Below, piece by piece: positions 10,674 through 47,666 of a DNA stretch of 64,000 bases. The stretch covers positions 14,914 to 78,913 of the forward strand of contig CAIKZC010000010.1 of the NCBI GenBank assembly GCA_903831815.1. The letters are read 5' to 3'. Under the pieces are notes generated by a model that had not been told where the DNA came from, searched no databases, and saw nothing but the letters and a program-made list of their open reading frames with translations. This DNA is from an uncultured bacterium (GTDB lineage Bacteria > Patescibacteriota > Minisyncoccia > Phycocordibacterales > UBA11359). A program made the translations under genes and the position numbers. Position 1 is the first letter of the stretch, and the number at the start of each line of letters is the position of its first letter.

Positions 10674-10687
10674 GAATTAGTCGCTAT

Positions 10688-11140: not shown

Positions 11141-11157
11141 CTAAGCATTCACCCAAA

Positions 11158-12588: not shown

Positions 12589-12615
12589 TTTAATCTGTAT
12601 TTAGTTGATAATTTT

Positions 12616-12933: not shown

Positions 12934-12948
12934 ATGAAAATGACAGTT

Positions 12949-13722: not shown

Positions 13723-13946
13723 TTTAATCTTTATCTCAATTTACCAATACTACCTCTACCTTAAGATTTTGTTAAGACAAAGATGGTGATTGCCTGAACA
13801 CCCCGCGACAAAGCCTCAAAAATGCCCAACGGCGCCTCGTTTTGCTCATTTAGCCATTAGTGCCTTACTGTGCCCAAAATGGGACTGAAAGATTGAAAAA
13901 GATGAGAAATTGATTTGTTGAGTAAACTTGATAACTTGAAAAACAA

Positions 13947-14444
13947 TTAACTAGTCAGTTCATCGATATTACTAGGTAACGTAGTCGTGCCGCAATTCTT
14001 GTCATTAAGAATGTTAGCTAAAAAACCAGAGGCTACATCGTCATTTGGGGCTCTCAGAAGTACATGGTAAAAAGCCGCACCTGCGTCAGCACAATTACCA
14101 AGACTATAAAGTGCGAATCCTCTGTGATTCCAAAAGTCTATATCGTTCCAAATTAAATCTTTGTGATTTTTGATACCATAGTCTGTCGCATTAACGACAA
14201 ATTGATAATCTTTATTTTGATTTCCCATAAATAAAAAACTATCACGGTCTGCGGATGATAGTGCGTACAAGTCCGGAGTAGTTGATGTGCTTTCTTGGGT
14301 TATGCTTACGGTTGTACTCGTAGAAGTAGCGCTTGAACTGGATTCCGTTCTTTGTGCTGGTTTTGAATGATAGAAAAGTACAACTAAAACAACAACGAGT
14401 CCTAATGCTATGATGCCGATAATTATTTTATTGTTGTTTTTCAC
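13947..14444 (-). CDS. Membrane-anchored extracellular protein (N-terminal TM, Ser/Thr-rich linker)
   Basis: N-terminal hydrophobic anchor IIIGIIALGLVVVLVVLF, then an S/T-rich stretch, then a globular domain with conserved Cys. Confidence 0.45.
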   Translation of the reverse strand: MKNNNKIIIGIIALGLVVVLVVLFYHSKPAQRTESSSSATSTSTTVSITQESTSTTPDLYALSSADRDSFLFMGNQNKDYQFVVNATDYGIKNHKDLIWNDIDFWNHRGFALYSLGNCADAGAAFYHVLLRAPNDDVASGFLANILNDKNCGTTTLPSNIDELTS

Positions 14445-14549
14445 TTTATTTTATTTTCCTTAACAGTATCTCGCTTAATGAGGAAATAGTCTATTGAGTA
14501 TTCGTAATGATATTTTCAATTAATCTTACAATGCGACTATTCATAGAGG

Positions 14550-15086
14550 CTATTGTGTCCAATCATCTTTCATCACTTTACTAATATAGATCATTGCAGA
14601 ATCGTAGTTAGATATAGAGGGGTTATACATAGGCCAAGTGTCATTTTTGTCGACTGGACCATCTATATTTATCCACCCCGTGTTGCCTTTATCTTTATCT
14701 TCAAATGCATAAGCTAATTCATCTTTTGTTTGGCCGTCATATAGAAATCTTGAGTAACTTCCTTTTGCCTCTAACGACCCCATATCACTAAACTCTACAT
14801 AACAGCGGTTCGTTGCTGGGTTATAATGCGAACTTTGGAGTCGAGAGTATCGGTAGTTGCCGCTTGGTTTGCTATCTGAGATTTTTTGACCAAGAGTAGC
14901 ACATTCTGATCGTAAATTGAATACCTCCGTAGCTGTGGGTAAATTATATACTTTTGTTTGCAAATCTAGATTTTGTTTGTTTACTTTACCTGATTCATTT
15001 TGAGTTTTGATAACGACAATAAGCAGAGCTAGGATGATAATGCCTAGCACCGACTCAAACCAATGTTCTTTGATTAATTTTTTCAT
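14550..15086 (-). CDS. Membrane-anchored extracellular protein
   Basis: N-terminal TM VLGIIILALLIVVI; 178 aa. Confidence 0.45.
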   Translation of the reverse strand: MKKLIKEHWFESVLGIIILALLIVVIKTQNESGKVNKQNLDLQTKVYNLPTATEVFNLRSECATLGQKISDSKPSGNYRYSRLQSSHYNPATNRCYVEFSDMGSLEAKGSYSRFLYDGQTKDELAYAFEDKDKGNTGWINIDGPVDKNDTWPMYNPSISNYDSAMIYISKVMKDDWTQ

Positions 15087-15091
15087 GCCAT

Positions 15092-15922
15092 TTAATTATT
15101 ACAACCCCCAGATAACGATAAGCGGTCGTAAAAACTAACCTGATTACAGTTAGGCCGCATCTGTTGAAGTTGTTGTTGAAATAGTTGTTGCTGTCGCTGT
15201 GCTTCTTGTTGTTGTTTCATTTGATCTAATGAACTCTGTACTTGCTGGAGCTGTTGCTGCTGTTGTTGCTGGAGAAGAATTGTTGCGTTTTGAGAAGATT
15301 GCTCAGCGTAGTTTGTGGTGTTATATGTTGGGAGAAAGATAGGAGCTGATTGTTGTCCAGTGTTCTGGCAAGATGTCCTAGTGCTGTTCCACATGTAGCC
15401 ACTTTTACAGAAACAAACAGGGCCACCACTTTCGTTTTTATTGCCAGAATCTACACTATTTTGGCCATACGAATCTTCGCATATTTGTTGATTTGTTTTT
15501 GGCACTGCTTGTGGCGGAGTCGGTTCGATAATTACGGTCGTCCCGTTTGGAAAAGTTGCGCAGTTACTTTCCAGTGTCGCTCCATTTGGACAGAGTGGAA
15601 CTGAGGCTGGTGCAGGTGTCGAAACTGGAACGGAAGTAAGATCAGGAGTAATTACTGTGTTAGAAACTTGTTTTTTAATAGCAGGTTTATTTTTTATTGT
15701 TGAAGTAGCAGTAGATGTTGCTGTATGCGTTTGTATAGTTACAGTTGTAGTACTTACAGAAGTGGTGGTTGTGGAAATATCTATCGGAGTAAATACGGTT
15801 TGAGGTTTAACTACGTTTGACCCAAACCATGTGAATGGATTCCACCAGGAGGCCATGGCTACGGAGGGAGTAACTACTGCTAGTACAATAATCGCAATAA
15901 ATACTTTGTTTAATTTCTGCAT
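15092..15922 (-). CDS. Secreted Thr-rich/Gln-rich protein with Cys-containing middle domain
   Basis: Signal peptide MQKLNKVFIAIIVLAVVTPSVAMA; poly-Thr linker; C-terminal poly-Q/coiled-coil QQQQQQQLQQ. Confidence 0.5.
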   Translation of the reverse strand: MQKLNKVFIAIIVLAVVTPSVAMASWWNPFTWFGSNVVKPQTVFTPIDISTTTTSVSTTTVTIQTHTATSTATSTIKNKPAIKKQVSNTVITPDLTSVPVSTPAPASVPLCPNGATLESNCATFPNGTTVIIEPTPPQAVPKTNQQICEDSYGQNSVDSGNKNESGGPVCFCKSGYMWNSTRTSCQNTGQQSAPIFLPTYNTTNYAEQSSQNATILLQQQQQQQLQQVQSSLDQMKQQQEAQRQQQLFQQQLQQMRPNCNQVSFYDRLSLSGGCNN

Positions 15923-15947
15923 ATTATTAGGCTAATGATGACTATGT

Positions 15948-15963
15948 GTACCACTGTACCACA
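15948..15963. promoter_or_regulatory. Tandem direct repeat TGTACCAC x2 in the divergent promoter region upstream of the XRE gene (candidate operator)
   Basis: tgtaccactgtaccac about 60 nt upstream of the XRE start. Confidence 0.3.
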
Positions 15964-16024
15964 TATTTTGTGATACTCATAGTCCGTCGCCTTAAAGTCA
16001 TCACACGCATACGCTTAGAGTGTA

Positions 16025-16249
16025 ATGATGCCTAAAAATAATGCTATATTAAAGAGCTTCGGTAATCGTGTTAGAGATCTCAGAATTGAGAAGGGTATTA
16101 ACTCACAAATTGCTTTGGCTAACAAAGCTGGGCTGGACCGCACATACATTGGCGGTGTAGAGCGTGGAGAGAGAAATGTGGGTCTTAAGAATATCGAAAA
16201 AATTGCCAAAGTTCTCGGCGTAAGTCTCGGTGAACTTTTTAGATTTTGA
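16025..16249 (+). CDS. XRE-family helix-turn-helix transcriptional regulator
   Basis: Cro/C1-type HTH pattern: [58 protein letters not shown]. Confidence 0.8.
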
Positions 16250-16374
16250 TTATCCGTAGTTTATTTCAAAATACTTATACACCGTTGACGTAAGCGTGAA
16301 TAAATGCTATTTTGAATGCGATCGACTCGGGAAGCGTTTTCCTGAGCATAACTGTTCCTTGAAAGGAGATTCAG

Positions 16375-17256
16375 ATGAAGATGATTATAGCGGTATTAGT
16401 TGTGATGTTTGTTTGTGCTGGCAACGTAATGGCTGGGGCATGGACCACCATTAACATACCTGGCGGCGGCACAAACTTGTTTGGGGTCAGTGGAAATAAC
16501 ATGGTTGGTAGTTCCTCTCGAGGTGGTTCATTCTACGATGGAACAAGCTGGGCTACCATTAACTATCCTGGGGCATCGAGTGCGGTCCCGTACGCGATCA
16601 GTGGCAACACTATCGTGGGTGAATACCGCGGAGGTACCCACAGTGGTCCTGGTAAGCAGGGCTATGGTTTCATCTATGACGGAACAAATTGGACCACCGT
16701 GGATGCCCCTGGACCAAACTACACAATTTTGTGCGGTATTTCTGGGAACAACATTGTTGGTCAGTACACCGATGCCTCTGACAACAATCACGGTTATTTC
16801 TACAATGGAACAAGTTGGGCGACCCTGGACTATCCTGGGGCAGGCGCAACATACCTACAAGGCATTTCCGGCACAAACATCGTTGGTTGGGAAGAAGGTG
16901 CTCCTGATGGTGACAACGCCTTTCTGTATGATGGAACGACGTGGAAAACTCTTGATATGCCCGGGGTGAATAGCTGGAGCATAGTTCCACGTGGCATTGA
17001 CGGCAGCAACATCGTTGGTTACTACAGCGCTCCAGACGCCACGCATGGTTTTCTCTACGACGGGACGACCTGGACCACACTTGATTACCCTGGGGCATTG
17101 GATACGATGGTGTATGGCATATCCGGTGGCGACATCGTTGGTGAGTATACTGACAACTCGGGGAACTATGGGTTTCTCTATACTGTTCCCGAACCAGCAA
17201 CACTTGGGCTGCTCAGTTTCGGTTTTCTGGCTCTGGTGCGCAGGCGACGGCGCTGA
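16375..17256 (+). CDS. Secreted repeat protein with a C-terminal PEP-CTERM sorting signal
   Basis: Signal peptide; about 7 repeats of a ~30-aa motif (Y/F)DGT(S/T)W(A/T)T(I/L)(D/N)YPGA...GISG.NIVG; C-terminus VPEPATLGLLSFGFLALVRRRRR-stop is a textbook PEP-CTERM (PEP, TM helix, Arg cluster); GC markedly above its surroundings. Confidence 0.7.
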   Translation: MKMIIAVLVVMFVCAGNVMAGAWTTINIPGGGTNLFGVSGNNMVGSSSRGGSFYDGTSWATINYPGASSAVPYAISGNTIVGEYRGGTHSGPGKQGYGFIYDGTNWTTVDAPGPNYTILCGISGNNIVGQYTDASDNNHGYFYNGTSWATLDYPGAGATYLQGISGTNIVGWEEGAPDGDNAFLYDGTTWKTLDMPGVNSWSIVPRGIDGSNIVGYYSAPDATHGFLYDGTTWTTLDYPGALDTMVYGISGGDIVGEYTDNSGNYGFLYTVPEPATLGLLSFGFLALVRRRRR

Positions 17257-17361
17257 TCTCGTGTCTTTGTTGGGAACAAAACAAGGCTGGTGGATTCATT
17301 TCCATCGGCCTTTTCTTTTATTTGGGTAATACCTAAGTTAGCCACCCGCTCTGAACATTAA

Positions 17362-17697
17362 TTATAACAAGTGGTCAACAAGCATTCCTTTGTATCTTCT
17401 GCTCCTGTATTCAAGATTTAGGCATTTCCGACAACCAATCTCTGAGTTTAACGGATGCACAAACAACGTACCAACACGTTCACTACATTTTGGGCACTTA
17501 AACCAATACCGCAAACCATTGAATGCGGTTTTAGATGGCGTAAGCTCGATAATCTGATCACTCATTTCAAGTTCGGCTGTTAACAGTACGCCCTTCAGTT
17601 TTGCCTTGGCCTGCCTGATATAGGTTGTGATGTTAATCTTCTGGCAGTCTTCAACCAGCATTTTTTCTCCTAAATCATTTGGGTTGAATGTTTTCAT
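17362..17697 (-). CDS. Hypothetical protein with C-terminal CxxC...CxxC zinc-ribbon
   Basis: CPKCSERVG...CRKC pairs; start taken at the internal Met MKTFNP. Confidence 0.35.
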   Translation of the reverse strand: MKTFNPNDLGEKMLVEDCQKINITTYIRQAKAKLKGVLLTAELEMSDQIIELTPSKTAFNGLRYWFKCPKCSERVGTLFVHPLNSEIGCRKCLNLEYRSRRYKGMLVDHLL

Positions 17698-18331
17698 GAT
17701 AATTACGATTATCGTTAATCTGCTGATTTTGAGCCACAAAAGCGTTGTGAGTTTTTATGTTCACTTCGAGTTGGGGTTGTTTCAATTGCCTTAAAGCCGT
17801 CATCATTGAAAGGAAGTTTCTGTATGATCTGTCGGCTTGTTTACTAAAGAAAGCGCCACATCTTGTTGAGGCGTCATCTACTTCTTCAACACAATTTAGA
17901 AAATCATTGAGTCGCTTCTGATCATTAATCACTTGTACATGAGCGAGCGCAACAAGCTCGGCTGTGGCTTTCTCAAGAGCAGTGGTGCATTTATAATCTT
18001 TTTCGATTTGTTGGACCACATTTAAGACTAGTGGCGCATATTTTTTACTGACGGAGTGTCTGAGATGGTAGTGATTTTCTAAACCTAAAGCCATCACAAA
18101 CTGATCGGATTGTTCCTGAAGATACTTTTTTGCTTCATCTTTTCCTTTTTTACTACCATCTTTCAGTTTCTGTAAGACGCCAGATATTTCACGAAACAAG
18201 TATTCAGGGTCACATCCGGCATGCATGCTATCACGCACAAACTGTTTGCTTTCCTCGGTGGTAGGGGGTTTTGATAAGGCCTTTGTGGTGTGGTTTTCAT
18301 TTTTATTTTGTATTTTGTTTGATATTGACAT
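17675..18331 (-). CDS. Hypothetical protein
   Basis: 218-aa ORF, charged/helical, no recognisable family. Confidence 0.35.
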   Translation of the reverse strand: MSISNKIQNKNENHTTKALSKPPTTEESKQFVRDSMHAGCDPEYLFREISGVLQKLKDGSKKGKDEAKKYLQEQSDQFVMALGLENHYHLRHSVSKKYAPLVLNVVQQIEKDYKCTTALEKATAELVALAHVQVINDQKRLNDFLNCVEEVDDASTRCGAFFSKQADRSYRNFLSMMTALRQLKQPQLEVNIKTHNAFVAQNQQINDNRNYHENIQPK

Positions 18332-18444
18332 GCATTTATCGTGATATACTGTGTTTTGTTAAGTCGTTTATGCCGCGGATGTTAGCTGCTTATTGCTAAG
18401 TGTGAGTTTGTCCAGGAACTTTAGACGGCTGAGTTTATCCATGC

Positions 18445-19983
18445 TTATTTTGATCGCAGGGTATATATTATAAAGTTCGGTAAATAGGTAAACAGGGTCA
18501 CCATTGTTGATGGGTCTCGCAAATATTCTTGATATATGCTGTAAATAGGCGTTAGTTTTGTGGTTCCAAATTTCTCCCCAGAAAAAGGCAGATTTTCTGC
18601 AAAGATTAAATTTTGGAACCGTAGTCTTTTCTCCGGTTTCTTCTCTAGCTTGCGCCAAGTCTCGGCAGTTTTTCTGATGAAGCTAAAACAATACTCTAAG
18701 GCCTCGTCCATATTGAATTCTTCAACTCGTTTGTCGTGAATTTGAGATTCTTTCAGAGCGATTTTTCTGTTTACGTTATCTTTCTGCATTATGAACTCCT
18801 CTTTGGTGTAGGTGTTGGATTCTAGAAGTTCAAATACACGTTGTCGTTGTTGCTCCAGTACTTTTATCTCTTTTCTGATCTGTGCGTTCTGCTCGTCGAA
18901 GTTTTTAAAATTGTTTTTCCAAATATCTAGGACGATAGCTTTGAAGGCTTTTTCATATTGCATGCTTGGATTGATTTCGTTTAGGTGTTCGACGAACATC
19001 TGCTCAAATGATTCTTTAGGAATGAATTTAGCGTGTTCACATTTCTGCTTGTGGTGGTGATAGTATGGGTACCTCTTGCCCGCTTGTCCGGTTGAGTGGC
19101 TACCAGTTAGAGGTTCGTGGCAAAATTGACATACGGCCAATTTCCTTAAGGGGAAAGAGCTGTTGTGTGTCAGGTGTGGCGAGTTCTTGTGTTTGCGACC
19201 GGATTCTTGGCAGAGGTAGAAAAGATTTTCGTCTACGATTGGTTCAAATGAGCCTTTGCTATCAATGTCCCAAACTCGGATAATTCCGCAATAGAGAGGG
19301 TTCTTGATGATTTTCTCAACAAGCTGAGGGATAGCGGTATTGCCTTGTCTGGTGACGAAACCACGCTTGTTTAAGAAGGTTGCCAGAGAGATATAGGTGT
19401 AAGTACCTTTTGAATATTCTTGAAATGCCATTTTGATATAGGGAGCATACTTTGGATCGGGTACGAGGTTGCCGGCTTTTTCGGTTCGACAATATCCGAG
19501 TGGTGCTTGCCAGACCCAGATACCTTGCTTGATTCTTTCTCGCATACCGTTGACGCTTCTTTCTGTTCTTACGTTGTTATCAAATTCAGCAAAACCGGAG
19601 AGCATGACTTCCATGAGTTTGCCGGATGGAGTGTCATCTATTTTTTCAGAAACGGAACGAATTTCGGTGCCGTAATTTTTGAGTTTTTGTTTGACGATGG
19701 CATAGTCAGTTTGGTTGCGGGAAAATCTATCGATTTTGTAGACGATAAAATAGGCAACTTTATTTTTCTTGTTGGAGCAAAGTGAAATGGCTTTGATGAA
19801 TTCAGTACGATCAGCAGTTTTTGCAGACTCGCCACGTTCGATATAAATCTGGAGGATGTTTACATTTTCTCGTTTAGCATATTCCTTGCACATACGCTCT
19901 TGAGATTCCAAACTGGTGCCGTCAACTTGTTCGAGTGAAGAGACTCGACAATATATTATTCCATTTTTGAGTTCGTTATTCAT
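18445..19983 (-). CDS. Large serine recombinase (512 aa), paralogue of the 26322..27860 recombinase
   Basis: YCRVSSLEQ catalytic-serine motif, resolvase domain, recombinase domain, Cys/His-rich zinc module (CQFCHEPL...YYHHHKQKCEH), C-terminal coiled coil. Confidence 0.75.
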   Translation of the reverse strand: MNNELKNGIIYCRVSSLEQVDGTSLESQERMCKEYAKRENVNILQIYIERGESAKTADRTEFIKAISLCSNKKNKVAYFIVYKIDRFSRNQTDYAIVKQKLKNYGTEIRSVSEKIDDTPSGKLMEVMLSGFAEFDNNVRTERSVNGMRERIKQGIWVWQAPLGYCRTEKAGNLVPDPKYAPYIKMAFQEYSKGTYTYISLATFLNKRGFVTRQGNTAIPQLVEKIIKNPLYCGIIRVWDIDSKGSFEPIVDENLFYLCQESGRKHKNSPHLTHNSSFPLRKLAVCQFCHEPLTGSHSTGQAGKRYPYYHHHKQKCEHAKFIPKESFEQMFVEHLNEINPSMQYEKAFKAIVLDIWKNNFKNFDEQNAQIRKEIKVLEQQRQRVFELLESNTYTKEEFIMQKDNVNRKIALKESQIHDKRVEEFNMDEALEYCFSFIRKTAETWRKLEKKPEKRLRFQNLIFAENLPFSGEKFGTTKLTPIYSIYQEYLRDPSTMVTLFTYLPNFIIYTLRSK

Positions 19984-19993
19984 GGCAGTAGTT

Positions 19994-20179
19994 TTACATA
20001 TCCAAATTTAGAAGTCTATCCACCCCAAGGGGATTATTGGAACCACATTTGTCCTCAATGAAACATTCAATGGCTAGTTGGGCTTGGCCATATAGTAAAT
20101 TACGAATTTTCGTTAATTCTTCGTCAGATTTTTCTTGCAAGGCCGGCTCTATTCTTTTGAGTTCATCGAGGGAGATCAT
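19994..20179 (-). CDS. Hypothetical small protein (overlaps the Rep gene by 4 nt: ATGA)
   Basis: 61-aa ORF translationally coupled to the upstream rep. Confidence 0.3.
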   Translation of the reverse strand: MISLDELKRIEPALQEKSDEELTKIRNLLYGQAQLAIECFIEDKCGSNNPLGVDRLLNLDM

Positions 20180-20982
20180 AGCAGTTCGCGAAGGTTGGGC
20201 AGGATGTCAAAAATCGACTGCTTTTTGCCAAGATTGTATTGTTTGTAGCCGACTGTTCCATTGTAAGAGCTTTCAAAATCTTTTTCTTTGGTGAGAAATT
20301 TTTGTGGTATCAGTTTAGAAATTCTGGTAGCTTTAATATGATCTTTGATCACGATAGGCCTGTGGAGGTAACGACTCGGAAAATATCTTTTTAATCCATC
20401 TAGTCGGCTGTCCGCTAAATTCTTGGACATATATTTTGAAATATACGCACCTACATTATTCACGTTTTCAATCGCTTTGATTTTGATATGACCGTATCGC
20501 CAGAGTTCAGCCAAAGTTTCTTTCTTGATGAATTTCAGATTGAAGAAAATAGTGTGATAGTGAATCGCTCCACGTTTTTGGAATTCAATGACCACGACAT
20601 ATTTGAGTAGATTGTTTTCGTCTACCGCATAATTAAGACGTTTAATAAAATTAGAAAATATTTTATTCGCTTCTTTTATGTTTTGGATATTTTCTTTAAA
20701 AGTAAAAGTAACGAAAACCGGAGGGTAGGGAACGGCATCTTTTTTGAACCATTGCCAAGCATTGGTGTTGACCAGTCTTCGCAAGATTGAATTTGTACGA
20801 TGAAGTGATCGTTGTTGAGATTCCGCTTTGCGCTGTTTGCTGGCTTCATCAGTCACCACAATTCTGGATCGAGTACGGCTTTGTTCGGGTACGGTAAAAT
20901 CATAGGACAGTGGTTTGTCGTCATAGCTGTATTCCTCAATAGTGGAACCAGAAAATATTAGTTTTTTCTTAGTTAATTTCAT
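20176..20982 (-). CDS. HUH rolling-circle replication initiator (two-tyrosine, phiX174 gpA/Microviridae VP4-like or plasmid Rep-like)
   Basis: Metal-binding HUH motif AIHYHTIFF and catalytic motif GAYISKYMSK (Y-x-x-K-Y); start taken at the internal Met MKLTKKK (track start 21063 would translate the upstream GC hairpin). Confidence 0.55.
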   Translation of the reverse strand: MKLTKKKLIFSGSTIEEYSYDDKPLSYDFTVPEQSRTRSRIVVTDEASKQRKAESQQRSLHRTNSILRRLVNTNAWQWFKKDAVPYPPVFVTFTFKENIQNIKEANKIFSNFIKRLNYAVDENNLLKYVVVIEFQKRGAIHYHTIFFNLKFIKKETLAELWRYGHIKIKAIENVNNVGAYISKYMSKNLADSRLDGLKRYFPSRYLHRPIVIKDHIKATRISKLIPQKFLTKEKDFESSYNGTVGYKQYNLGKKQSIFDILPNLRELL

Positions 20983-21034
20983 CCCTTTATGTGTGACTAT
21001 AATCAAGTCCAACCGGACTTCGCTTCGCTCGTCC

Positions 21035-21061
21035 GCCCGCCCCGCATAAGCGGGGGCGGGC
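21035..21061. promoter_or_regulatory. GC-rich hairpin immediately upstream of the Rep gene: candidate rolling-circle origin (nick-site stem-loop) or regulatory structure
   Basis: GCCCGCCCCGC-ATAA-GCGGGGGCGGGC: ~11-bp nearly pure-GC stem with one bulge in otherwise AT-rich DNA, ~50 nt upstream of the preferred Rep start. Confidence 0.4.
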
Positions 21062-21154
21062 ACCCGACAGCGATAGCAAAAAGACCATGATGTATTGTCA
21101 TGGCCAAGTATAAATAACGACTTAGAGAAAACTTTTCTAGAAATTCGGTAAAGT

Positions 21155-21895
21155 TTATAGAACCCTTAAATATTCTGGGTTAATTCGCACTTTTCCGGAT
21201 ATGGTAGAGTTAAAAATTAGAAATTGTTTGATCTTGTTGTCGGTCGCTTCTCGCACTTTTTCGTTGATGGCTTTGCAGGCAGAGTGATAGCGTTTCCAGT
21301 TATCTTTGTCTTTGGTGTATAGCTCCTTATTTTCGCCAAATTCCTCTCTGGCTATTTCAGCGTAATAGAACTCGTCTTTCAGATTATCTTCGTGATCAAT
21401 GAAAATATTTTTTAGAATTTTGTGTTCGTTGGTTACCTTGTCTTGTCTGGCGATTTTGATCTCGTGTTCACCAATTCGCAAGATACTTTCTGCTTCATTA
21501 AATTCCGGTGTTCTTATTATCTCTTTTGGTTCAATACCTCGCTTATACCGCTCCAGTACTTTATATATTGAATCGGCGACAATGACGTAGAATATTGGAA
21601 TTCGTATTACTCCGTTTACCGTATTATCTACGTCAAAATCGTCTACGTTAGGGTCGAACTTGGCCGGATCGCGAACGGTTTCAATAATTATGCAACCTTT
21701 TTGCTCTAAATATTCAAGAGCTGAACAAAAACCGTATCGGTTCATATTGAGCGGTTCGATATCTTCGCCATATATATCGATGGTAGGTGGTTCATCCTCC
21801 GATGTATGAAGATACCTAGCAGATATCTCAAATTCTTTGAGTTTGAAGACTAATAGCTCTAGTGTTTTGATGATTTCTTGGTCGAAATTGTCCAT
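21155..21895 (-). CDS. Hypothetical protein
   Basis: 246-aa acidic ORF, no recognisable family. Confidence 0.35.
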   Translation of the reverse strand: MDNFDQEIIKTLELLVFKLKEFEISARYLHTSEDEPPTIDIYGEDIEPLNMNRYGFCSALEYLEQKGCIIIETVRDPAKFDPNVDDFDVDNTVNGVIRIPIFYVIVADSIYKVLERYKRGIEPKEIIRTPEFNEAESILRIGEHEIKIARQDKVTNEHKILKNIFIDHEDNLKDEFYYAEIAREEFGENKELYTKDKDNWKRYHSACKAINEKVREATDNKIKQFLIFNSTISGKVRINPEYLRVL

Positions 21896-21970
21896 GGTTT
21901 TTATGCGGGTATATTAGCACTTTTTAGACTTGAAGTAATGGAGTTATGAACAGGCAAATGACCGGTTAGT

Positions 21971-22019: not shown

Positions 22020-22241
22020 ATGACAAGGTCTATAAGAACAAGGGAATATGCTTATTTTGTCGAGCGATTAAGAAAAGCTCGTGAAGAGGCGGGATTAACT
22101 CAGGTGGAGGTTGCTAGGAAGTTAAAACGTCCGCAGTCGCATATTTCTAATGTGGAATCCGGACAGCAAAGGGTTGATGTTGTCGAACTTCAAAACTTTG
22201 CGAAGATCTATAATAAGGAAATAGGGTATTTTATTAAATAA
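22020..22241 (+). CDS. XRE-family HTH transcriptional regulator
   Basis: GLTQVEVARKLKRPQSHISNVESGQQRVDVVELQNFAKIY Cro/C1-type HTH. Confidence 0.8.
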   Translation: MTRSIRTREYAYFVERLRKAREEAGLTQVEVARKLKRPQSHISNVESGQQRVDVVELQNFAKIYNKEIGYFIK

Positions 22242-22247: not shown

Positions 22248-22757
22248 ATGTTTTGTAAACATTGTGGGACTAGCTTGGAAGAAGGAGTGAAGTTTTGTGG
22301 TAAGTGTGGAGGAAAAAATGCAGATGCCGTTGCTCTTGCAGAATCTTCTTTTGTAATACAGGAAGGTTTTTTTGAGCGTATTTCCACGGGCAGACTCGGC
22401 AGACGAAATTATTTCTTTGGCTTATTGTACACAATTTTGCCGATTCCTATTTTGGTTACGTTTTGGGGGTTGATTAGTTTTCTTCTGGGTCAAGAGTCTC
22501 CGATCTTCTCATTTTTTAGCATGATAATCCCGCTTCTTATTGGTCTTGCTGTATTATGGTTCCTAGCCTCTCTTCCTGTGTCTATCTGCATAACAATTAG
22601 ACGTTGTCATGATTTCGGTTTGAGTGGGTGGTTTGTTCTATTAGGAGGCATAATAATGTTAATTGCATTATTTCCAGGTAGTAACAAAGGCTTAAATGAA
22701 TACGGTAAACCGCCGGTGAAAGGCAGGAAATTTTTATCTGATATTTTTAATAAATAA
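22248..22757 (+). CDS. Zinc-ribbon domain membrane protein with DUF805-like 4-TM region
   Basis: N-terminal MFCKHCG...KFCGKCG double CxxC zinc ribbon, then a DUF805-like hydrophobic core (YFFGLLYTILPIPILVTFW...). Confidence 0.6.
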   Translation: MFCKHCGTSLEEGVKFCGKCGGKNADAVALAESSFVIQEGFFERISTGRLGRRNYFFGLLYTILPIPILVTFWGLISFLLGQESPIFSFFSMIIPLLIGLAVLWFLASLPVSICITIRRCHDFGLSGWFVLLGGIIMLIALFPGSNKGLNEYGKPPVKGRKFLSDIFNK

Positions 22758-22762
22758 AAACC

Positions 22763-23896
22763 ATGTTTTGTAAAAATTGTGGGAACAAGATTAAAGATGA
22801 AGAAAAGTTTTGTTCATCTTGCGGAGTTGGAGCTGGGCAAGTTGGTAAAAGTGATCTGCCGGCAGATTCTGTTAAAAAGGAAGTAAGAGCAATAATTAAG
22901 TGTGGGAATTGCGCCTACATTGGTCCTGGAGAGCCAGCAAGAAGCATTGCCGGCATAATCCTAGCTTGGCTATGTGTTTTGTTCGCTCCGATAATCACAA
23001 TTATATATTTTGCGGCAACCCACAAATATAGGTGTCCAAAATGTAAGTCTACGTTTCTTGGTGTCAAAAACAGAGAAGGCAATTTTGTTGGTCAAAGTGG
23101 TGCTGGGCGAGTCGTTATTGTGATTGTTTTTCTACTTGTCGGTATTGCTGTTATGGGTATTTTATCTGCTATTGTTTTAGCATCATTAAATAGTGCACGC
23201 ACGAAAGCTAAAGATGCTCAAATTCAGGCAGGTCTTAGTAGTATGCGAGCGGCTGCCGAGATTTATTATTCAAAAAATTTAGAATCTTATTCAGTAGCTT
23301 CCGACTGTAATCATGGGATGTTTGCTTCCAGTGATCTTTCCGATCTTGTTTCTAACGTTCAGGAAAAAGGTACCAACGTAAAATGTTACGCAAATGGTGA
23401 CAGTTGGGCTGCTTCCTCTGTACTAACTAATTCAACGGGCGATAGTTGGTGTGTTGATAGTACTGGCAAAAGTCAAAATGGGACGGCTACAGAGAGTAAC
23501 TTGAAAGCTTTTTGTTCTAAAGATATTTCTTCAAATAGTTCAGTTGAAGATTCAAGTGATTCTATGACTAACGAAGAATATGTTAAACAAGTAGTTGTTG
23601 AAGCAAAAAAACAACTAACTCTCCCAAAAAAGACTGATGAAAATACGACTTTGACGGATATTGTCGCTGAACAATCAACCTTGCGTTATAAGTACACTCT
23701 GCAAGGGTTAGACCTAAGTGATTATACCGACAGTTCATTTAATAAAAAAATGAAGCCTTTGCTGGCCGATGATCTGTGTAAAAATGATAGTCTGACTGGT
23801 TTTCTGAATAGAGGCATAGATGTAAAGTATTCATATTTAGATTTAGAAACATACAAAAGTTATCTCATAACCTTTACTAAGGGTGATTGTTTATAA
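22763..23896 (+). CDS. Zinc-ribbon domain membrane protein fused to a type IV pilin-like N-terminal helix and a ~240-aa extracellular domain
   Basis: MFCKNCG...KFCSSCG zinc ribbon; TM; segment ILSAIVLASLNSARTKAKDAQIQAGLSSMRAAAEIYY resembles the pilin/pseudopilin N-terminal helix; Ser/Thr/Cys-containing C-terminal domain. Confidence 0.55.
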   Translation: MFCKNCGNKIKDEEKFCSSCGVGAGQVGKSDLPADSVKKEVRAIIKCGNCAYIGPGEPARSIAGIILAWLCVLFAPIITIIYFAATHKYRCPKCKSTFLGVKNREGNFVGQSGAGRVVIVIVFLLVGIAVMGILSAIVLASLNSARTKAKDAQIQAGLSSMRAAAEIYYSKNLESYSVASDCNHGMFASSDLSDLVSNVQEKGTNVKCYANGDSWAASSVLTNSTGDSWCVDSTGKSQNGTATESNLKAFCSKDISSNSSVEDSSDSMTNEEYVKQVVVEAKKQLTLPKKTDENTTLTDIVAEQSTLRYKYTLQGLDLSDYTDSSFNKKMKPLLADDLCKNDSLTGFLNRGIDVKYSYLDLETYKSYLITFTKGDCL

Positions 23897-23901
23897 AATA
23901 T

Positions 23902-24132
23902 ATGCACTGCACAAATTGTGGGAACAAAAATGATCCTGATACAAAATTCTGTGGTAAATGCGGAGCTGAGCATATCGTGAAAGACACAGACTCAAAAATA
24001 AATTTTGTATCTAATTCTACTTGGGCTACTCAAACAACAGGTGTCAAAATTGCAATATACATAGTACTTGCATTTGCTGGTCTAATACTTGTTTCTATGA
24101 TTCTTTTGTATATTCCTTCTTTTTGGCGTTAA
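23902..24132 (+). CDS. Small zinc-ribbon protein with C-terminal TM anchor
   Basis: MHCTNCG...KFCGKCG zinc ribbon, then IAIYIVLAFAGLILVSMILLYI. Confidence 0.5.
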   Translation: MHCTNCGNKNDPDTKFCGKCGAEHIVKDTDSKINFVSNSTWATQTTGVKIAIYIVLAFAGLILVSMILLYIPSFWR

Positions 24133-24326
24133 TGGCGGTCTATCCTGTAGAGAAATTTGTAAGATAAGCCTAAATTAAACGGCTTACTTATGTGTGGCTA
24201 TTCGCAAGTTGTGGATATCCAACAGCTTGACTTTTGTAGCCCCATGGAGTAAGATACTAAGTGAAAGTCACCTGCGCCAGCGAAAGCTGTGTGCAGGTTT
24301 TCGTTATGGGGTGTATAATACAGGCC

Positions 24327-25004
24327 ATGGAACGAATCTGTATACATATTGATGGGGGTAATTTCTACCATTTAGTCCTCAAAAAACTCGGTCTAAAAGA
24401 GAAAGATTTTGACTTTGATAAGTTCACTCAATTTCTCGCCGGAGAGAAAAGGACTATATCTGAAATGGGTAAACGATACTATGTGGGTACAGTAAGAGAA
24501 AAAGTTGGTGACGAGAGAAGTAAAATATCGATGGCTTTGCAAACCTCACTTTTTGCACGACTGAAATCTACTAAATGGGAAATAAAAACAAGCAAATTAA
24601 GGACGAGGATCGAAGAAATTGTTATTGACCAGAGAGTACAAGATTTTAAAAAACTGCAGAAATTGGGAATCAAATCTATTGTATTTGAAAGACAGCGAGA
24701 GAAGGGTATTGATGTAAAACTGGCTACTGATCTGATTGTCGGAGCAATAGATAACAAATATGATACAGCTATAGTAGTTAGTTCGGATGGTGATCTTATT
24801 CCAGCAATTGATTGGGTACGAAATAGATTTAAGAAGAAAATAGAATACGTCGGCTTTTCTATTGCAGATCCAAAAAATCCAAAAAATTCTACTAGACCGT
24901 TGCTTTCGATGATACCAAAAACAGATATTCAACGTACTTTGACAGCAGAGGACTTAAAGCCGTTTATCATTCGATTACCGTTAACCGATGGGGAGGTTGG
25001 CTAA
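24327..25004 (+). CDS. NYN-domain (LabA-like, PF01936) protein
   Basis: IHIDGGNFYH ... GIDVKLATDLI ... YDTAIVVSSDGDLIPAIDWV; a TATAAT hexamer sits 10 nt upstream of the ATG, so the mRNA is possibly leaderless. Confidence 0.7.
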   Translation: MERICIHIDGGNFYHLVLKKLGLKEKDFDFDKFTQFLAGEKRTISEMGKRYYVGTVREKVGDERSKISMALQTSLFARLKSTKWEIKTSKLRTRIEEIVIDQRVQDFKKLQKLGIKSIVFERQREKGIDVKLATDLIVGAIDNKYDTAIVVSSDGDLIPAIDWVRNRFKKKIEYVGFSIADPKNPKNSTRPLLSMIPKTDIQRTLTAEDLKPFIIRLPLTDGEVG

Positions 25005-25013
25005 AATCTATAT

Positions 25014-25667
25014 ATGCATAATATAATATTCAGACACTTTTCGGAGAAAAATACTTCCAATGTTGGTTCAATTGTTGATTGGATAACTATTCTCACATTT
25101 ATTACAACAATCGTTATTTTCTTAATTGATAGTTATTTCAATCGAAGACAAGAACATGAAAAGTGTTTGAATAGATTACTGTCTTTGAAATTTGAGCTTC
25201 AAAAAAATACGAATATAATAAATAAGTTTATCAACGAAATTGAAAAACAGTTATTAAGCGGGAGTAAAGTGGTTTATTACAGGTACGACACTTTGGTAAC
25301 GGAGTCTCTTATTTCAAGTGGAGAAATATTGGACTCGGATTTTCTTAGAAACCTTGATGCAATTTTAGGTGAAGAAAAACAAATAAACAGGCTTTTGGAC
25401 AGCATTGAAAAAATGGCAGATATGTCGCACGTAGATTCTGGTGACATTGCAAATTTGTTTAAAAATAGAATAACCACTGCTTCAAATTTGGTTGTATCAA
25501 TAAACAAAAATTTGACCAAATATTATCCAAAGGTAATCGATGGATTAGGTTCATATATTAGAAAAACAGAGGCAAAGAAATTTTTGGGCGTAAAGGCTTT
25601 TAATGTTTGTACTAATGAAAAGGAGATTAAAGAGGAGTTTTGGAAGGAGAAATATCAAATTTTATAG
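25014..25667 (+). CDS. Hypothetical protein with N-terminal TM helix
   Basis: 217 aa, TM ITILTFITTIVIFLI followed by a helical cytoplasmic domain. Confidence 0.4.
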   Translation: MHNIIFRHFSEKNTSNVGSIVDWITILTFITTIVIFLIDSYFNRRQEHEKCLNRLLSLKFELQKNTNIINKFINEIEKQLLSGSKVVYYRYDTLVTESLISSGEILDSDFLRNLDAILGEEKQINRLLDSIEKMADMSHVDSGDIANLFKNRITTASNLVVSINKNLTKYYPKVIDGLGSYIRKTEAKKFLGVKAFNVCTNEKEIKEEFWKEKYQIL

Positions 25668-25693
25668 CCACGATACCCTTAAACTCCTGGTGT

Positions 25694-25743
25694 GCCCTTA
25701 TATTCCCACAAACTTGGTCCCAATTCCATTTAACGAGGGTCAC
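25694..25743. repeat. Direct repeat copy 1 (50 bp, 45/50 identical to 26286..26335) flanking the NUDIX gene
   Basis: GCCCTTATATTCCCACAAACTTGGTCCCAATTCCATTTAACGAGGGTCAC. Confidence 0.6.
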
Positions 25744-25791
25744 TCGTGAACATCGTGAATGTTGTGAACATCTCTGGTACAATCATCTGAT

Positions 25792-26247
25792 ATGGATAAA
25801 AAGATTATTATTCGATGCAGAGCTATTATTCTCCACAAAGGAAAATTGTTGGTTGTTAAACATTCACCGGAAAATACTTTTTATGTGTTGCCTGGAGGCC
25901 ACTTTGAATGGGGCGAGGAGGTGAAGGAGTGTATGAGTCGTGAATTGGAGGAAGAGCTTGGCATAAAAGGTGATGTGGGGAGATTGTTTTATGTAAACAA
26001 TTTTGTGTGCGACGATACGGATTATATAAGTAAGGGTACACAATCTATTGAATTTTTCTTTGAAATAAAAAACTCTGCTGATTATGCAAATATGAACAAA
26101 CCAACTGGTTCGCATGCCGATGAGATCTATGAACTCAGATGGGTTAGCAAAGACGATGATGTGAATATTATGCCACTAAGTATTAGTAAAGATTTAAGAG
26201 ATGGTGAGCTTGGGTCTGAATCGCCCCGCTTCATTAGAAGTCAATAA
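25792..26247 (+). CDS. NUDIX hydrolase
   Basis: Nudix box GGHFEWGEEVKECMSRELEEELGI. Confidence 0.8.
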   Translation: MDKKIIIRCRAIILHKGKLLVVKHSPENTFYVLPGGHFEWGEEVKECMSRELEEELGIKGDVGRLFYVNNFVCDDTDYISKGTQSIEFFFEIKNSADYANMNKPTGSHADEIYELRWVSKDDDVNIMPLSISKDLRDGELGSESPRFIRSQ

Positions 26248-26285
26248 ATGGGTGTTACCTGACTAAAGCACTTAATTCCTGAAAA

Positions 26286-26335
26286 GCCCTTATATTTCCA
26301 CAAAGTTGGTTCCAATTCCATCTAACGTGGGTCAC
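26286..26335. repeat. Direct repeat copy 2 (matches 25694..25743); its GGGTCAC end abuts the left inverted repeat of the recombinase element
   Basis: GCCCTTATATTTCCACAAAGTTGGTTCCAATTCCATCTAACGTGGGTCAC. Confidence 0.6.
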
Positions 26336-27860
26336 ATTCAGATACTTCGGCAGTGGTGAGCGTAAAATGGGAGCGCGCCGCAGGCGCGCTGTAGGGTGAG
26401 AGGGAGGATTTCCCCTTGCGGGTGCGGACGAAAATGGAGGGCGGGCAAAATGAGATTGAGATAGTTTTGTCTTTTAGCGCGGGGTTCGTTCCAAAAGAGC
26501 GGAGAAAATCTCTCATCTCATGGAGATTTTCGCCCGTTGCCAGAAACCCCGCGCGTTTTGAATCCAAAATCCATTTCCGCAGGGGTTCGACCCAATTCTT
26601 TCTCTCGGCTCGGGCAGATGAAGATTTTGCTTGAAGCGAAAGTTTTTGACGCATGAGTGCGTCTTTTTTGGTCAAATATATCTCGCGCTCAATATCTTGG
26701 TTTAAGTACAAATCAACAAGTGCGTCTAACTTCGCTTCAAGAGTCTTCAAATCTTCCTTCATCTGCCCGAGACGATTTCCCGAAGCGTTGATTTCATCGT
26801 GCTCAAATTCTCCAACTTTTTTGAGCATATAATCTGCCCACGCTTCGGGAAACGACACTGATTGAAGCTGTTCCTTTATTTGGAGAGCGAGCGCACCTTC
26901 CTGCAAATATCCCTGACTACATTTTCCTTTCTTTTTCGTGCAACGATAATAGCGATACCTCCCGCCCATTTTTCCAGTACACCATTGAGCAGTAATCATA
27001 GAGTCACATTCGCCGCAACGAAAAAGACCGGTGAAAGGAAAATTGTGGGATATTTTGCTATGCCTCGGATGCGCTCGCTCCTCCAATCTTTTCTGTACAG
27101 CTTCAAACAGGGTCGGAGAAAGAATCGGTGCAAAGCTTCCGGGAAAAAATTCCCCATGATGTTTGGTGAAGCCGAGATACGCTCGATTGGTCAATATTCT
27201 TTTCACGGAAGCTTTGCCAAGTGGCGTTCCGGACTTTTGTGCTACACCGTGGAGAGCCAAAAACTGCGACAACGAAACTAGGGTATGTGAACCTTTTACA
27301 TATTCTTCATATGCTCGAACAATGATTTTAGATTTCACTGGATCAGGCTCTATGTTACGCGTAACGGGATTGTTCACATACCCGAATGGAGCCCGAGTCA
27401 ACCACTCTCCTCGTCGCAGTTTTTGGCGCATACCTCGCTCAACGTTTTGCTTTAAGTTGTCAGAATAATACTTACTTTGTCCGAACGCCACTTGAAGCAT
27501 AAAGAGACCATGCGGAGTTGGCTCAAACCAAAATGTCGGAAAGCGCAAAGAGACTATTTTAGAAGTGTCGACGGCATAAATGATGCGTCCACCGTCAATG
27601 CTGTTTCTGGCTAGACGGTCGGGGTGCCAGGCGAGAATTCCAACATTACCGACTTTCTCAATTTTAAGCATCATTTTGCCGAACACTTCTCTTCCGGGGC
27701 TCTTGGCGCTTTTCGACTCTTGAAATTCCTCAAGGATTTCAAGATTTTCTCTGCTCGCAAATTCACGAAGTTCTACAAGCTGGGCAGGAATGCTCATGAC
27801 TTGCTTGTCGTCATCTTCAGTACTCTTGCGAGCATAGAGAAAATATTTTGGTTTGTTCAT
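26322..27860 (-). CDS. Large serine recombinase (512 aa) of the IS-like element
   Basis: YARKSTEDDD catalytic-serine motif; resolvase + recombinase domains; zinc ribbon CGECDSM...YYRCTKKKGKC; coiled coil; last ~45 codons lie inside the left inverted repeat. Confidence 0.75.
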   Translation of the reverse strand: MNKPKYFLYARKSTEDDDKQVMSIPAQLVELREFASRENLEILEEFQESKSAKSPGREVFGKMMLKIEKVGNVGILAWHPDRLARNSIDGGRIIYAVDTSKIVSLRFPTFWFEPTPHGLFMLQVAFGQSKYYSDNLKQNVERGMRQKLRRGEWLTRAPFGYVNNPVTRNIEPDPVKSKIIVRAYEEYVKGSHTLVSLSQFLALHGVAQKSGTPLGKASVKRILTNRAYLGFTKHHGEFFPGSFAPILSPTLFEAVQKRLEERAHPRHSKISHNFPFTGLFRCGECDSMITAQWCTGKMGGRYRYYRCTKKKGKCSQGYLQEGALALQIKEQLQSVSFPEAWADYMLKKVGEFEHDEINASGNRLGQMKEDLKTLEAKLDALVDLYLNQDIEREIYLTKKDALMRQKLSLQAKSSSARAERKNWVEPLRKWILDSKRAGFLATGENLHEMRDFLRSFGTNPALKDKTISISFCPPSIFVRTRKGKSSLSPYSAPAARSHFTLTTAEVSECDPR

Positions 27861-28021
27861 ATATATGTTTTGGATTCAAAAAAGGAAACTATCTCAATCT
27901 CATTTTGCCCGCCCTCCATTTTCGTCCGCACCCGCAAGGGGAAATCCTCCCTCTCACCCTACAGCGCGCCTGCGGCGCGCTCCCATTTTACGCTCACCCC
28001 TGCCGAAGTATCTGAATGTGA
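26333..28021. mobile_element. Compact IS-like element: one large serine recombinase gene bounded by ~135-bp near-perfect terminal inverted repeats
   Basis: Reverse complement of 26333..26467 matches 27886..28021 almost perfectly (1-2 mismatches seen by eye); the repeats are far more GC-rich than flanking DNA, carry an internal palindrome GCGCGCCGCAGGCGCGC, and enclose only the recombinase. Confidence 0.65.
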
Positions 28022-28070
28022 TCTAATTGTATCCTTTGGAAAAAAGTTCGTGCAAAGGATACAATTAGAT
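28021..28070. terminator. Perfect 18-bp-stem hairpin (ATCTAATTGTATCCTTTG...CAAAGGATACAATTAGAT) abutting the right element end; likely terminator of the downstream minus-strand methyltransferase gene and/or insertion target
   Basis: Perfect inverted repeat with 14-nt loop, located between IRR and the stop of 28091..29023. Confidence 0.45.
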
Positions 28071-28090
28071 CACCGCGTCATTTTATTTTT

Positions 28091-29023: not shown

Positions 29024-29078
29024 ATTAGGTGGATGATAACACGCTTTACTTTTATATGATATATTTGAATTTAAAGTT

Positions 29079-29690: not shown

Positions 29691-29702
29691 AGTGTATAAT
29701 AA

Positions 29703-30137: not shown

Positions 30138-30141
30138 TTTT

Positions 30142-47660: not shown

Positions 47661-47666
47661 ATTATT

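Follow-up and report, generated by a model that had tools for sequence, protein, structure and literature searches.

A probable integrative rolling-circle element with a hairpin-and-box origin in a Patescibacteria chromosome

The DNA described here is a stretch of 64,000 nucleotides from an uncultured bacterium of the Patescibacteriota (assembly GCA_903831815.1, contig CAIKZC010000010.1, positions 14,914 to 78,913), referred to below as the window, and the subject of this report is a replication initiator gene, rep, together with the small element in which it is carried. The rep gene is located on the minus strand (20176..20982) and encodes a rolling-circle replication initiator (Rep) of the HUH type, 268 aa in length. 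Upstream of it a GC-rich hairpin, a short conserved element and a near-invariant box stand one after another; downstream of it two genes follow on the same strand, a 61-aa open reading frame (ORF) called orf61 and a large serine recombinase (LSR) called LSR-B. The segment from about 18494 to 25743 (minus strand) is regarded with good confidence as an integrative element of about 7.25 kb in the chromosome of a member of Patescibacteria (class Paceibacteria-like), and this confidence applies jointly to its reading as a rolling-circle replicon.

A preliminary description of this DNA had reported an ORF at 20176..21063 with a HUH motif (AIHYHTIFF) and a tyrosine motif (GAYISKYMSK), and both are present there, on the minus strand. 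Its start had to be corrected. Judged from the aligned homologues, the true start of rep is ATG 20982 and not GTG 21063, because 31 of 31 homologues begin with MK(L/Q)T and AAAGGG stands just 5' of this ATG in the window; a gene starting at the listed GTG would be read through the hairpin. In a Pfam scan Rep matched PF23343 (REP_ORF2-G2P) at E 3e-24 with 85.6 bits (gathering cutoff 27.8) over 98 of 99 profile positions, its homologues all carry a precomputed PF23343 assignment, and its PHROGs matches are the families 'replication initiation' and 'rolling circle DNA replication initiation'. The three families which had been named beforehand for such a check, Phage_GPA (PF05840), Rep_1 (PF01446) and Rep_trans (PF02486), gave no match at E<=1 in the scan, and PF23343 takes their place. 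Local matches around the HUH motif that stayed below threshold were noticed for RepSA (PF20199, E 8.5e-6, 25.6 against 34 bits) and Helitron_like_N, and the RepSA-type model NF041486 scored 16.5 against a cutoff of 700.

The motifs of Rep are arranged in the order of the HUH endonuclease superfamily, with motif I first, then HUH and then the catalytic tyrosine. Motif I (FVTFTF, residues 90-95, with F90, T92 and T94), both histidines (H141 and H143, codons 20554..20562, minus strand) and the first tyrosine (Y180, 20443..20445, minus strand) are invariant in an alignment of 32 sequences. The second tyrosine (Y184, 20431..20433), which is preceded by K183, is kept in at least 90% of that alignment, with S or E found in three sequences; the Y-x-x-x-Y spacing is the same in Rep (YISKY) and phiX174 gpA (YVAKY). 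The AlphaFold (AF2) model of Rep reached a mean predicted local distance difference test (pLDDT) value of 90.8, and among solved structures Foldseek matched it to the HUH domains of TYLCV Rep, SIRV1 ORF119 and circovirus Reps with a probability of 0.97-1.0, whereas the best viral fold matches (BFVD) were ORF2/G2P-domain proteins, a 'replication gene A protein' and microvirus initiators. On the grounds of family profile, conserved motifs and predicted fold, the protein is taken to be a genuine two-tyrosine HUH rolling-circle initiator, as had been proposed.

A search of 5.8 billion protein sequences returned 716 relatives of Rep, the closest named ones belonging to Candidatus Taylorbacteria, Nomurabacteria, Moranbacteria and Paceibacterota, which agrees with the earlier suggestion of a genome of the candidate phyla radiation (CPR). 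No match was obtained with Rep in a sequence search of the PDB, and no relatives in a search of viral contigs. By sequence comparison, Rep belongs with the plasmid Reps of pHT926 and pGTG5, in a family to which Pfam also assigns the Reps of inoviruses and plectroviruses.

The hairpin occupies 21035..21061 and reads GCCCGCCCCGC-ATAA-GCGGGGGCGGGC on the plus strand, that is 11 bp with one bulged G and a loop of 4 nt. It is placed 52 nt upstream of ATG 20982, very near the distance of about 50 nt first given for it, and its pattern occurs once in the window and in none of 100 shuffles; the whole 176-nt intergenic region folds with z = -5.7. The hairpin is followed by no T-run and is therefore not regarded as a terminator. 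Between it and the box lies the small conserved element GGACGAGCGAAGCGAAGTCC (21015..21034, minus strand), invariant in the window and in four related loci (L095, L002, L007 and L060), with the sequence GCGAAGC inside. GCGAAGC is an exceptionally stable DNA mini-hairpin. Its occurrence 19-21 nt before the box is restricted to the closest subgroup and the plasmid pGTG5; within a conserved GAGCGAAGCGA element it is seen at 21021..21029 of the window and at about 384 of pGTG5 (L092).

The box itself, TTGGACTTGATTATAGTCACACATAAAGGG, extends over 20983..21012 (minus strand) with its core at 20987..21007, and its 3' end doubles as the ribosome-binding site. In the window and the five relatives found first it follows the near-invariant consensus TTG(G)RCTTGATTATAnnCACACwTAAAGrG and is succeeded by the start codon. 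The box core is identical across these first 6 loci, whereas the hairpin stems differ in sequence from locus to locus; in the window the box lies 23-50 nt downstream of the hairpin. When public metagenome contigs were scanned for the pattern CTTGATTATAnnCACACwTAA, 72 loci were obtained, and in about 50 of them the gene of a Rep homologue (32-57% identity) begins 30-370 nt farther downstream in the same orientation; for this reason it can be said that the box travels together with the Rep family, down to proteins of about 35% identity. The upstream regions of these loci fold at z<-2 in 39 of 46 distinct cases (85%, median z -4.7), a level reached by 9% of the coding controls taken from these loci. 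Hairpin stems are unrelated between subgroups. In the recombinase-linked subgroup the RNAalifold consensus, calculated on a MAFFT alignment (an anchored manual alignment was dropped since bulges shift the register), comprises 10 pairs, of which 5 exhibit compensatory double changes.

Where viral-strand synthesis is annotated to start, the phiX174 origin reads CAACTTG|ATATT and contains the same ACTTGAT as the box core. The core also comes within one base of CTTGATA, at which Rep_1 plasmids such as pC194 are nicked and which is conserved among them (PMC10378824); for pC194 the ori sequence TTCTTATCTTGATAATAAGG has been given (PMC7072734). Because of these two matches, to the phiX174 nick heptamer and to the pC194-type site, the likely nick of Rep is placed by analogy at CTTG|ATTATA, between 21004 and 21003 of the minus strand. 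The exact nick position of pC194 is assumed here after PMC10378824. A conserved candidate nick motif in the vicinity of the hairpin, for which a search had been recommended, is in this way found, its precise position being predicted. The hairpin had been seen as the possible origin or nick site; its place in the origin region is borne out by its conservation, but the nick is better sought in the box downstream of it. An accessory part in the origin would then fall to the hairpin and, as far as the closest subgroup is concerned, to the GGACGAGCGAAGCGA(A)GTCC element; they could serve in Rep binding, strand opening or lagging-strand priming. A literature search for the box string CTTGATTATA returned chance matches only.

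The self-sufficiency of this arrangement is evidenced by free relatives. Eleven box-bearing contigs (L024, L048, L063, L071, L072, L084, L086, L088, L064, L056 and L069), mostly from samples of digester or bioreactor type, are circular, with the terminal direct repeats typical of assembled circles and units of 1336-4347 bp. The smallest of them have room for little besides rep and the hairpin/box region and rank among the smallest autonomous replicons. In PLSDB homologous Reps (34-46% identity) are encoded on small plasmids including pGTG5, pHT926 and plasmids of Bacillus, Clostridium and Fusobacterium, and it is plasmids that are the closest non-CPR relatives of Rep. The cognate origin that marks an autonomous replicon, with a conserved nick sequence beside rep, is present in the window as well, again with a predicted nick position.

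It could be supposed that hairpin and box are purely transcriptional, the former an insulator or attenuator and the latter the promoter or operator of a mobility operon, with the nick site elsewhere or absent. A terminator-like hairpin with a T-run (21083..21105, minus strand, with an equivalent in L002) ends the upstream gene for a 246-aa protein, so rep would need a promoter of its own, and no sigma-70-type site was seen for it on its strand; the box, moreover, directly precedes the ribosome-binding site. In addition, tandem pairs of boxes 37-46 nt apart stand before a distant LSR (25-30% identity) with no rep between them in five metagenome loci (L028 1255/1300; L050 4005/4042; L053 8344/8381; L058 4731/4777; L077 3697/3734). 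In L053 and L058 a rep is present elsewhere on the contig, and such loci may be Rep-less satellite elements or may point to a regulatory use of the box. Against this, Firmicutes plasmids and CPR elements have 19 of 21 box nucleotides in common, with Reps that are only 35-40% identical, a degree of conservation typical of nick sites and not of promoters. Neither the geometry of -35 and -10 sites nor a T-run behind the hairpin is there, the box core is that of the phiX174 nick heptamer, and in other subgroups the box is located 60-370 nt from the start codon. A purely transcriptional role is accordingly judged quite improbable, and hairpin and box are treated below as parts of a replication origin.

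LSR-B (18445..19983, minus strand, 512 aa) has the Resolvase, Recombinase and Zn_ribbon_recom domains, resembles CcrB/XisF and is the integrase of the Rep element, at the edge of which it is encoded. Recombinases 63-80% identical to it follow rep in the relatives, and every relative with enough sequence has the same succession of rep, an ORF of 61 or 62 aa with its start overlapping the rep stop, and an LSR of about 505-512 aa. This Rep-orf61-LSR core of three genes recurs in Paceibacteria and is all that is conserved throughout the element family. The small protein of the window, orf61 (19994..20179, minus strand), is situated between rep and the recombinase and overlaps the rep stop in the manner described; its position is conserved in the loci of the LSR-bearing group at 48-60% identity. 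It had no family match in any profile library searched and is proposed as a candidate recombination directionality factor. All three genes of the core are intact in the window, with all catalytic motifs.

The mobility of the family was seen most directly in a sister element (P0009, Rep 56% identical), which is found with 100% identity over 6396 bp at two chromosomal places. At both of them the 3' end of the recombinase gene overlaps a convergent tRNA-Glu gene (anticodon UUC at one, CUC at the other), no relation is seen between the flanks on the left, and it is at the anticodon base that the copies first differ. A 7-bp repeat, GTGATCC, marks the left end of the sister element and the 3' end of the tRNA. 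This element has moved recently. The two target tRNA-Glu genes (L007 12498..12572 and L009 7970..8044) differ in the anticodon only; their upstream flanks are about 80% alike over some 25 nt and unrelated beyond. A crossover near the anticodon was considered for the sister element and rejected in favour of the tRNA 3' end, since the homology of the recombinases stops at TGGTGAYCC, the 7-bp repeat is present at the left end and the left flanks are unrelated.

Throughout the family, homology of the recombinase genes stops at TGGTGAYCC or TGGTGGACC, which is the reverse complement of the tRNA 3' end, and a tRNA-Glu or tRNA-Ala gene overlaps or follows the LSR 3' end in 9 of 10 complete elements. 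It follows from these two observations that the family integrates at the 3' end of tRNA-Glu or tRNA-Ala genes, with the reading frame of the recombinase crossing the junction.

In the window the homology of LSR-B stops in the same manner at TGGTGACCC (18494..18503), although no tRNA-Glu fragment adjoins it. The right-end crossover core TGGTGACCCT (18494..18503, minus strand), the reverse complement of the tRNA 3' end, is here the junction between the Rep element and another element, designated element A. The chromosomal target is tRNA-Glu(UUC) at 8971..9045 (plus strand), the 3' end of which anchors a stack of integrated elements. The arrangement was made clear by two related loci, L095 and L096, in which host genes are 74-77% identical to those of the window at the nucleotide level and the Rep element abuts tRNA-Glu(UUC). 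L095 9939..13403 corresponds to window 21955..18494 with 87.9% nucleotide identity, and directly afterwards L095 13394..13618 matches window 9045..8820, that is tRNA-Glu(UUC) and tRNA-Ser. Because L095 lacks the stretch between, element A (9046..18493, minus strand, 9.45 kb), absent in L096 as well, is understood as an extra, separately integrated element inserted between the Rep element and the tRNA.

The left end was approached through a motif like that of the sister left end (GTGAYCC...GAATTGGRAC), two minus-strand copies of which were found by motif search. Site 2 (25693..25743, motif copy 25717..25743) consists of a GTGACCC core with a P'-type arm; site 1 (26275..26336, motif copy 26309..26335) is a second P'-type arm, fused to the 3' end of a further recombinase gene, LSR-C. 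The two sites share 66 bp at 85% identity beginning exactly at GTGACCC, and L095 has two equivalent arm copies which likewise flank one gene. The probable left end, as far as it can be read from these motifs, is 25743, giving the 7.25-kb element, and 26335 is the alternative. The mobility and ends of the family are defined by the sister element at its two tRNA-Glu genes and by the right end in L095 and L096, and for the left end of the window copy the motif copies serve as the guide.

It might also be thought that the window copy is a decaying, immobile relic trapped between other elements, which no longer excises or replicates. Its right junction is a hybrid with element A and not with the tRNA, and among the contigs with the flanking genes only the integrated arrangement was recovered: when the 218-aa and Nudix proteins of the flanks were looked up by exact match, no empty-site or circular-junction contig came out. 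On the other hand, rep, orf61 and LSR-B are intact, the core is 88% identical to that of L095 against 74-77% for host genes, which suggests a more recent exchange or a strong constraint, and the sister element was mobile in recent time. Decay to immobility is held to be rather unlikely.

Several observations nevertheless weigh against an element that is integrative, replicating and still complete, and they should be taken together. In the LSR-bearing group no excised circular form was found, the circles coming all from a distant, recombinase-free branch, and none was found for the window element either; the search for circular contigs that had been advised at the beginning was to that extent successful for the family and unsuccessful for this group. 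The right end of the window copy now faces element A and not the tRNA, which may impair excision of the Rep element alone, and its left end is suggested by motif similarity alone. A few homologues are devoid of the second tyrosine. As no canonical promoter of rep was found, the box could also, or solely, be a promoter or operator, and the tandem boxes in front of distant recombinases point in the same direction. Finally, any present-day activity or expression of the window copy would be conjectural. With these points counted, the best explanation is still, and with considerable confidence, that of an integrative rolling-circle plasmid or mobilizable element composed of Rep, an origin of hairpin, GCGAAGC and box, orf61 and the LSR, inserted at the 3' end of tRNA-Glu or tRNA-Ala genes.

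The remaining genes of the element are arranged around this core. Upstream of rep and on the same strand lies the gene of the 246-aa protein mentioned above (p246, 21155..21895), a partner of rep in part of the family, with homologues adjoining rep in L002, L034, L070, L095 and others. It had no match in family or defence profile scans; its AF2 model (pLDDT 78) gave weak matches to winged-helix folds (E>0.1), and on this modelled fold it is probably a DNA-binding protein of the winged-helix type. An XRE/Cro-CI-type helix-turn-helix (HTH) regulator is encoded on the plus strand (22020..22241; HTH_3/HTH_31, PHROG transcriptional repressor), divergently from the p246-rep-orf61-LSR operon. It is followed on the plus strand by variable cargo (22248..25667), namely a DUF805 membrane protein, zinc-ribbon membrane proteins, a NYN nuclease and a 217-aa membrane protein. 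The NYN nuclease (24261..25004) matches the PADLOC candidate defence family HEC-09 at E 8e-17. At the corresponding place the sister element carries an NgoPII-type restriction enzyme and a C5 methylase (L007 7681..9598), and L095 has unrelated small ORFs. The cargo of the window and of the sister element looks defence-related. NYN was also considered as a host gene in synteny with L007, an idea that was given up since the NYN proteins of the two loci are unrelated (E 0.077).

This content bears on a further proposal of the preliminary description, which had considered either a plasmid-type Rep, possibly of an integrative and conjugative element (ICE), or the remnant of an integrated single-stranded DNA (ssDNA) element. 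Such a remnant would stem from a phage, a microvirus/gokushovirus or an inovirus/plectrovirus, after loss of its structural genes. Relatives of Rep do exist in the inovirus bajarodino virus 41 (36%, E 8e-32), in Spiroplasma and Clostridium phages and among microvirus VP4-type proteins (tblastn 25%, E 6e-7); the inovirus likewise has a hairpin before a related TTTAATTATAG box, and cryptic inoviruses with serine recombinases are known in CPR (PMC6813254). Yet neither capsid nor Zot/pI nor other virion genes were detected with Pfam and PHROGs in the Rep element, in element A or in about 20 related elements, in accordance with the first impression that no microvirus capsid gene is nearby. Moreover, the cargo, composed of defence or membrane genes, is not the same from copy to copy, plasmids are the nearest relatives outside CPR, and Rep, orf61 and LSR make up the whole conserved core. 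A phage remnant is in consequence highly improbable and that part of the proposal is given up; the plasmid/ICE-type Rep is upheld by its setting in a Rep-orf61-LSR integrative element and by homologous small plasmids.

The neighbourhood of the Rep element deserves a short account, for several integrated elements are stacked here at a single tRNA. Element A has a serine recombinase of its own, LSR-A (8982..10673), the reading frame of which runs into the tRNA. It also encodes a 476-aa P-loop protein with a Walker A motif (APKGSGKS) near residue 155 and no family or PHROG match, a DUF5659 protein, several secreted or membrane proteins, an HTH protein and a PEP-CTERM protein. On the other side, LSR-C (26322..27860) is a third large serine recombinase, its 3' end fused at GTGACCC to a P'-type arm; between it and trxB FkbM-type and class-I methyltransferases and a Nudix gene are found, and the LSR-C region (26322..30140) is probably a third stacked element. 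Two recombinase-site arms of about 62 bp flank a single gene both in the window (25693..26336, Nudix) and in L095 (6929..7792, short-chain dehydrogenase), as though a remnant or cassette of one gene had been caught between attachment sites. In the window (6711..9045) and L095 the genes for tRNA-Ser(CGA) and tRNA-Val(GAC) stand on the other side of tRNA-Glu than in L007 (5952..6139) and are turned the other way round, and this suggests a rearrangement at the tRNA cluster between lineages.

The way in which such an element could pass between cells leads to another explanation, in which Rep is mainly a non-canonical relaxase, the box is an origin of transfer (oriT), and the element is an integrative and mobilizable element (IME) that uses a type IV secretion system (T4SS) of the host chromosome after excision by the LSR, Rep nicking the box and guiding the single strand through this system to another cell; this would be compatible with replication. 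In streptococcal IMEs proteins with PHA00330 plasmid-Rep domains are paired with tyrosine or serine integrases and are taken as relaxases (PMC5357655), and the sources cited there for the Rep domains include the papers on pHT926 and a Fusobacterium plasmid, both of whose Reps are homologous to that of the window. Rep_1 plasmids can be mobilised by ICEBs1 via their Rep (PMC5714925). According to a study of 2025, a conjugation-type T4SS of the mating-pair formation (MPF) class, MPF-FATA-like, is near-universal in Patescibacteria together with almost no known relaxase (PMC12102498). T4SS_pilin-like ORFs are present in the window at 47223..49103, and the sister element adjoins such genes. Against a relaxase as the main role, no coupling protein (TcpA/VirD4-like) was found in the element or in any relative examined, a protein which most streptococcal IMEs of this class encode; circles of 1.3-1.8 kb, which must replicate themselves, are formed by the same Rep and box; and any link of this Rep family to transfer would be conjectural. 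The explanation is therefore kept as a tentative possibility of low weight. Its wider form, in which the Rep family as such is the 'missing relaxase' of Patescibacteria and the box, as oriT, hands the strand to the MPF-FATA-like T4SS, is considered distinctly unlikely. The ORFs at 47223..49103 form a run of small ORFs with at least one T4SS_pilin (PF18895), downstream of gyrA and a solute-binding protein, and the same T4SS_pilin neighbourhood flanks the insertion site of the sister element in L011.

If the integrative rolling-circle element is accepted, the following cycle can be proposed. In the integrated state the XRE-type repressor would silence the p246-rep-orf61-LSR operon. A circle would be excised by the LSR, to which the 61-aa protein may lend its help as directionality factor. 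Rep would then bind the hairpin/box region, and Y180, as the motifs and the family suggest, would nick the rep-sense strand at CTTG|ATTATA and become linked to the 5' end; nicking and covalent attachment are predicted to take place on GGACTTGATTATAG. The circle would be copied by helicase and polymerase of the host until Y184 could cut the regenerated site and the strand be resealed in the way of phiX174 gpA. The single-stranded circle would be converted to double-stranded DNA, possibly, and more speculatively, with priming at the hairpins, and it would persist as a plasmid or re-integrate (attP with the attB of the tRNA), whether in the cell it came from or in another.

The mobile elements of Patescibacteria/CPR have been little charted, and there are hardly any genetic tools for these bacteria; in this respect the locus is of practical use. 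It supplies a compact and apparently complete replicon, consisting of rep and an origin of about 130 bp with a recognisable nick box, as well as a serine integrase whose target at the 3' end of tRNA-Glu/Ala genes can be read from natural junctions. It also shows, in natural cases, how cargo is exchanged (restriction-modification, NYN nuclease) and how elements are stacked at a single tRNA. Shuttle and integration vectors are usually built from parts of this kind. Through the architecture of hairpin and box, tiny plasmids of Firmicutes, inovirus-like phages and CPR elements are joined in a single lineage of origin and Rep, and a concrete candidate is offered for the relaxase that seems to be lacking from the CPR T4SS. 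Should the relaxase explanation be true, CPR would possess a conjugation-like route of gene exchange, and the T4SS question would become testable with a defined 7-kb element. Biologically, this is an expected type of element in a poorly explored phylum and introduces no new principle; its practical value resides in the replicon and integrase parts.

Among known systems, the nearest are two Firmicutes plasmids, pHT926 of Brevibacillus borstelensis (1786 bp) and pGTG5 of Geobacillus sp. 1121 (1540 bp), the Reps of which are 37-40% identical to that of the window over 93-99% (E 1e-45 and 8e-44). In both the origin is laid out as in the window, with a GC-rich hairpin upstream of rep and (T)TAACTTGATTATAG after it, and pGTG5 additionally has GAGCGAAGCGAG in common with the window. 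They are, however, free circles of 1.5-1.8 kb with no recombinase, whereas the window copy is chromosomal, in a CPR host, and fused to orf61, LSR and cargo. The Reps of Inoviridae and Plectroviridae belong to the same Pfam family; bajarodino virus 41, with its 36% identical Rep, has a hairpin with a GCTTTAGC tip before the related box, but genomes of these viruses carry Zot and coat genes, none of which was found in the window element.

Rep is believed, by analogy, to function like phiX174 gpA and pC194 RepA, outside the Pfam families of both. In pC194 RepA, a glutamate stands in place of one tyrosine. The likeness to phiX174 gpA stressed in the preliminary description, together with that to VP4, holds at the level of motifs (HFH against HYH, VGFYVAKYVNK against VGAYISKYMSK), extends to the ACTTG|AT heptamer on the coding strand in both, the nick site of phiX174 and the predicted one here, and includes the VP4-type relatives; it fails as regards membership in Phage_GPA, for no match to this family was obtained and BLASTP with gpA gave E 0.13, with only the two catalytic motifs aligned. 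Furthermore, gpA has 513 aa and a longer spacer between HUH and tyrosine, and the phiX174 origin lies inside gene A, whereas the window element is without virion genes. With the Rep_1 plasmids pC194 and pUB110 the nick core CTTGAT(A/T) and the rolling-circle mode are shared (PMC10378824; PMC7072734), but there is no match to the Rep_1 hidden Markov model at E<=1.

Elements that combine a rolling-circle Rep with an integrase are already known from pSAM2-type integrative and conjugative elements of actinomycetes (AICEs; PMC2440964) and from streptococcal IMEs (PMC5357655). The latter (Coluzzi et al. 2017) likewise have a plasmid-type Rep and an integrase in a small chromosomal element with specific targets, and the resemblance is drawn through the plasmid Rep papers cited there and the homologous plasmid Reps; they mostly encode TcpA, none of which was found here, and live in another host phylum. 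pSAM2 and other AICEs are integrated at tRNA genes and replicate by rolling circle after excision with the HUH protein RepSA, to which the window Rep has the weak local match below cutoff. In contrast to the window element, with its serine recombinase and no Tra gene, pSAM2 employs a tyrosine integrase with Xis, an FtsK-like transfer protein and a Rep of about 440 aa from another family, and the window element does not count as an AICE of the pSAM2 type. What is new here is the host phylum, the particular core of Rep, orf61 and LSR, the recombinase frame that crosses into the tRNA, and the origin of hairpin and box held in common with tiny plasmids of Firmicutes.

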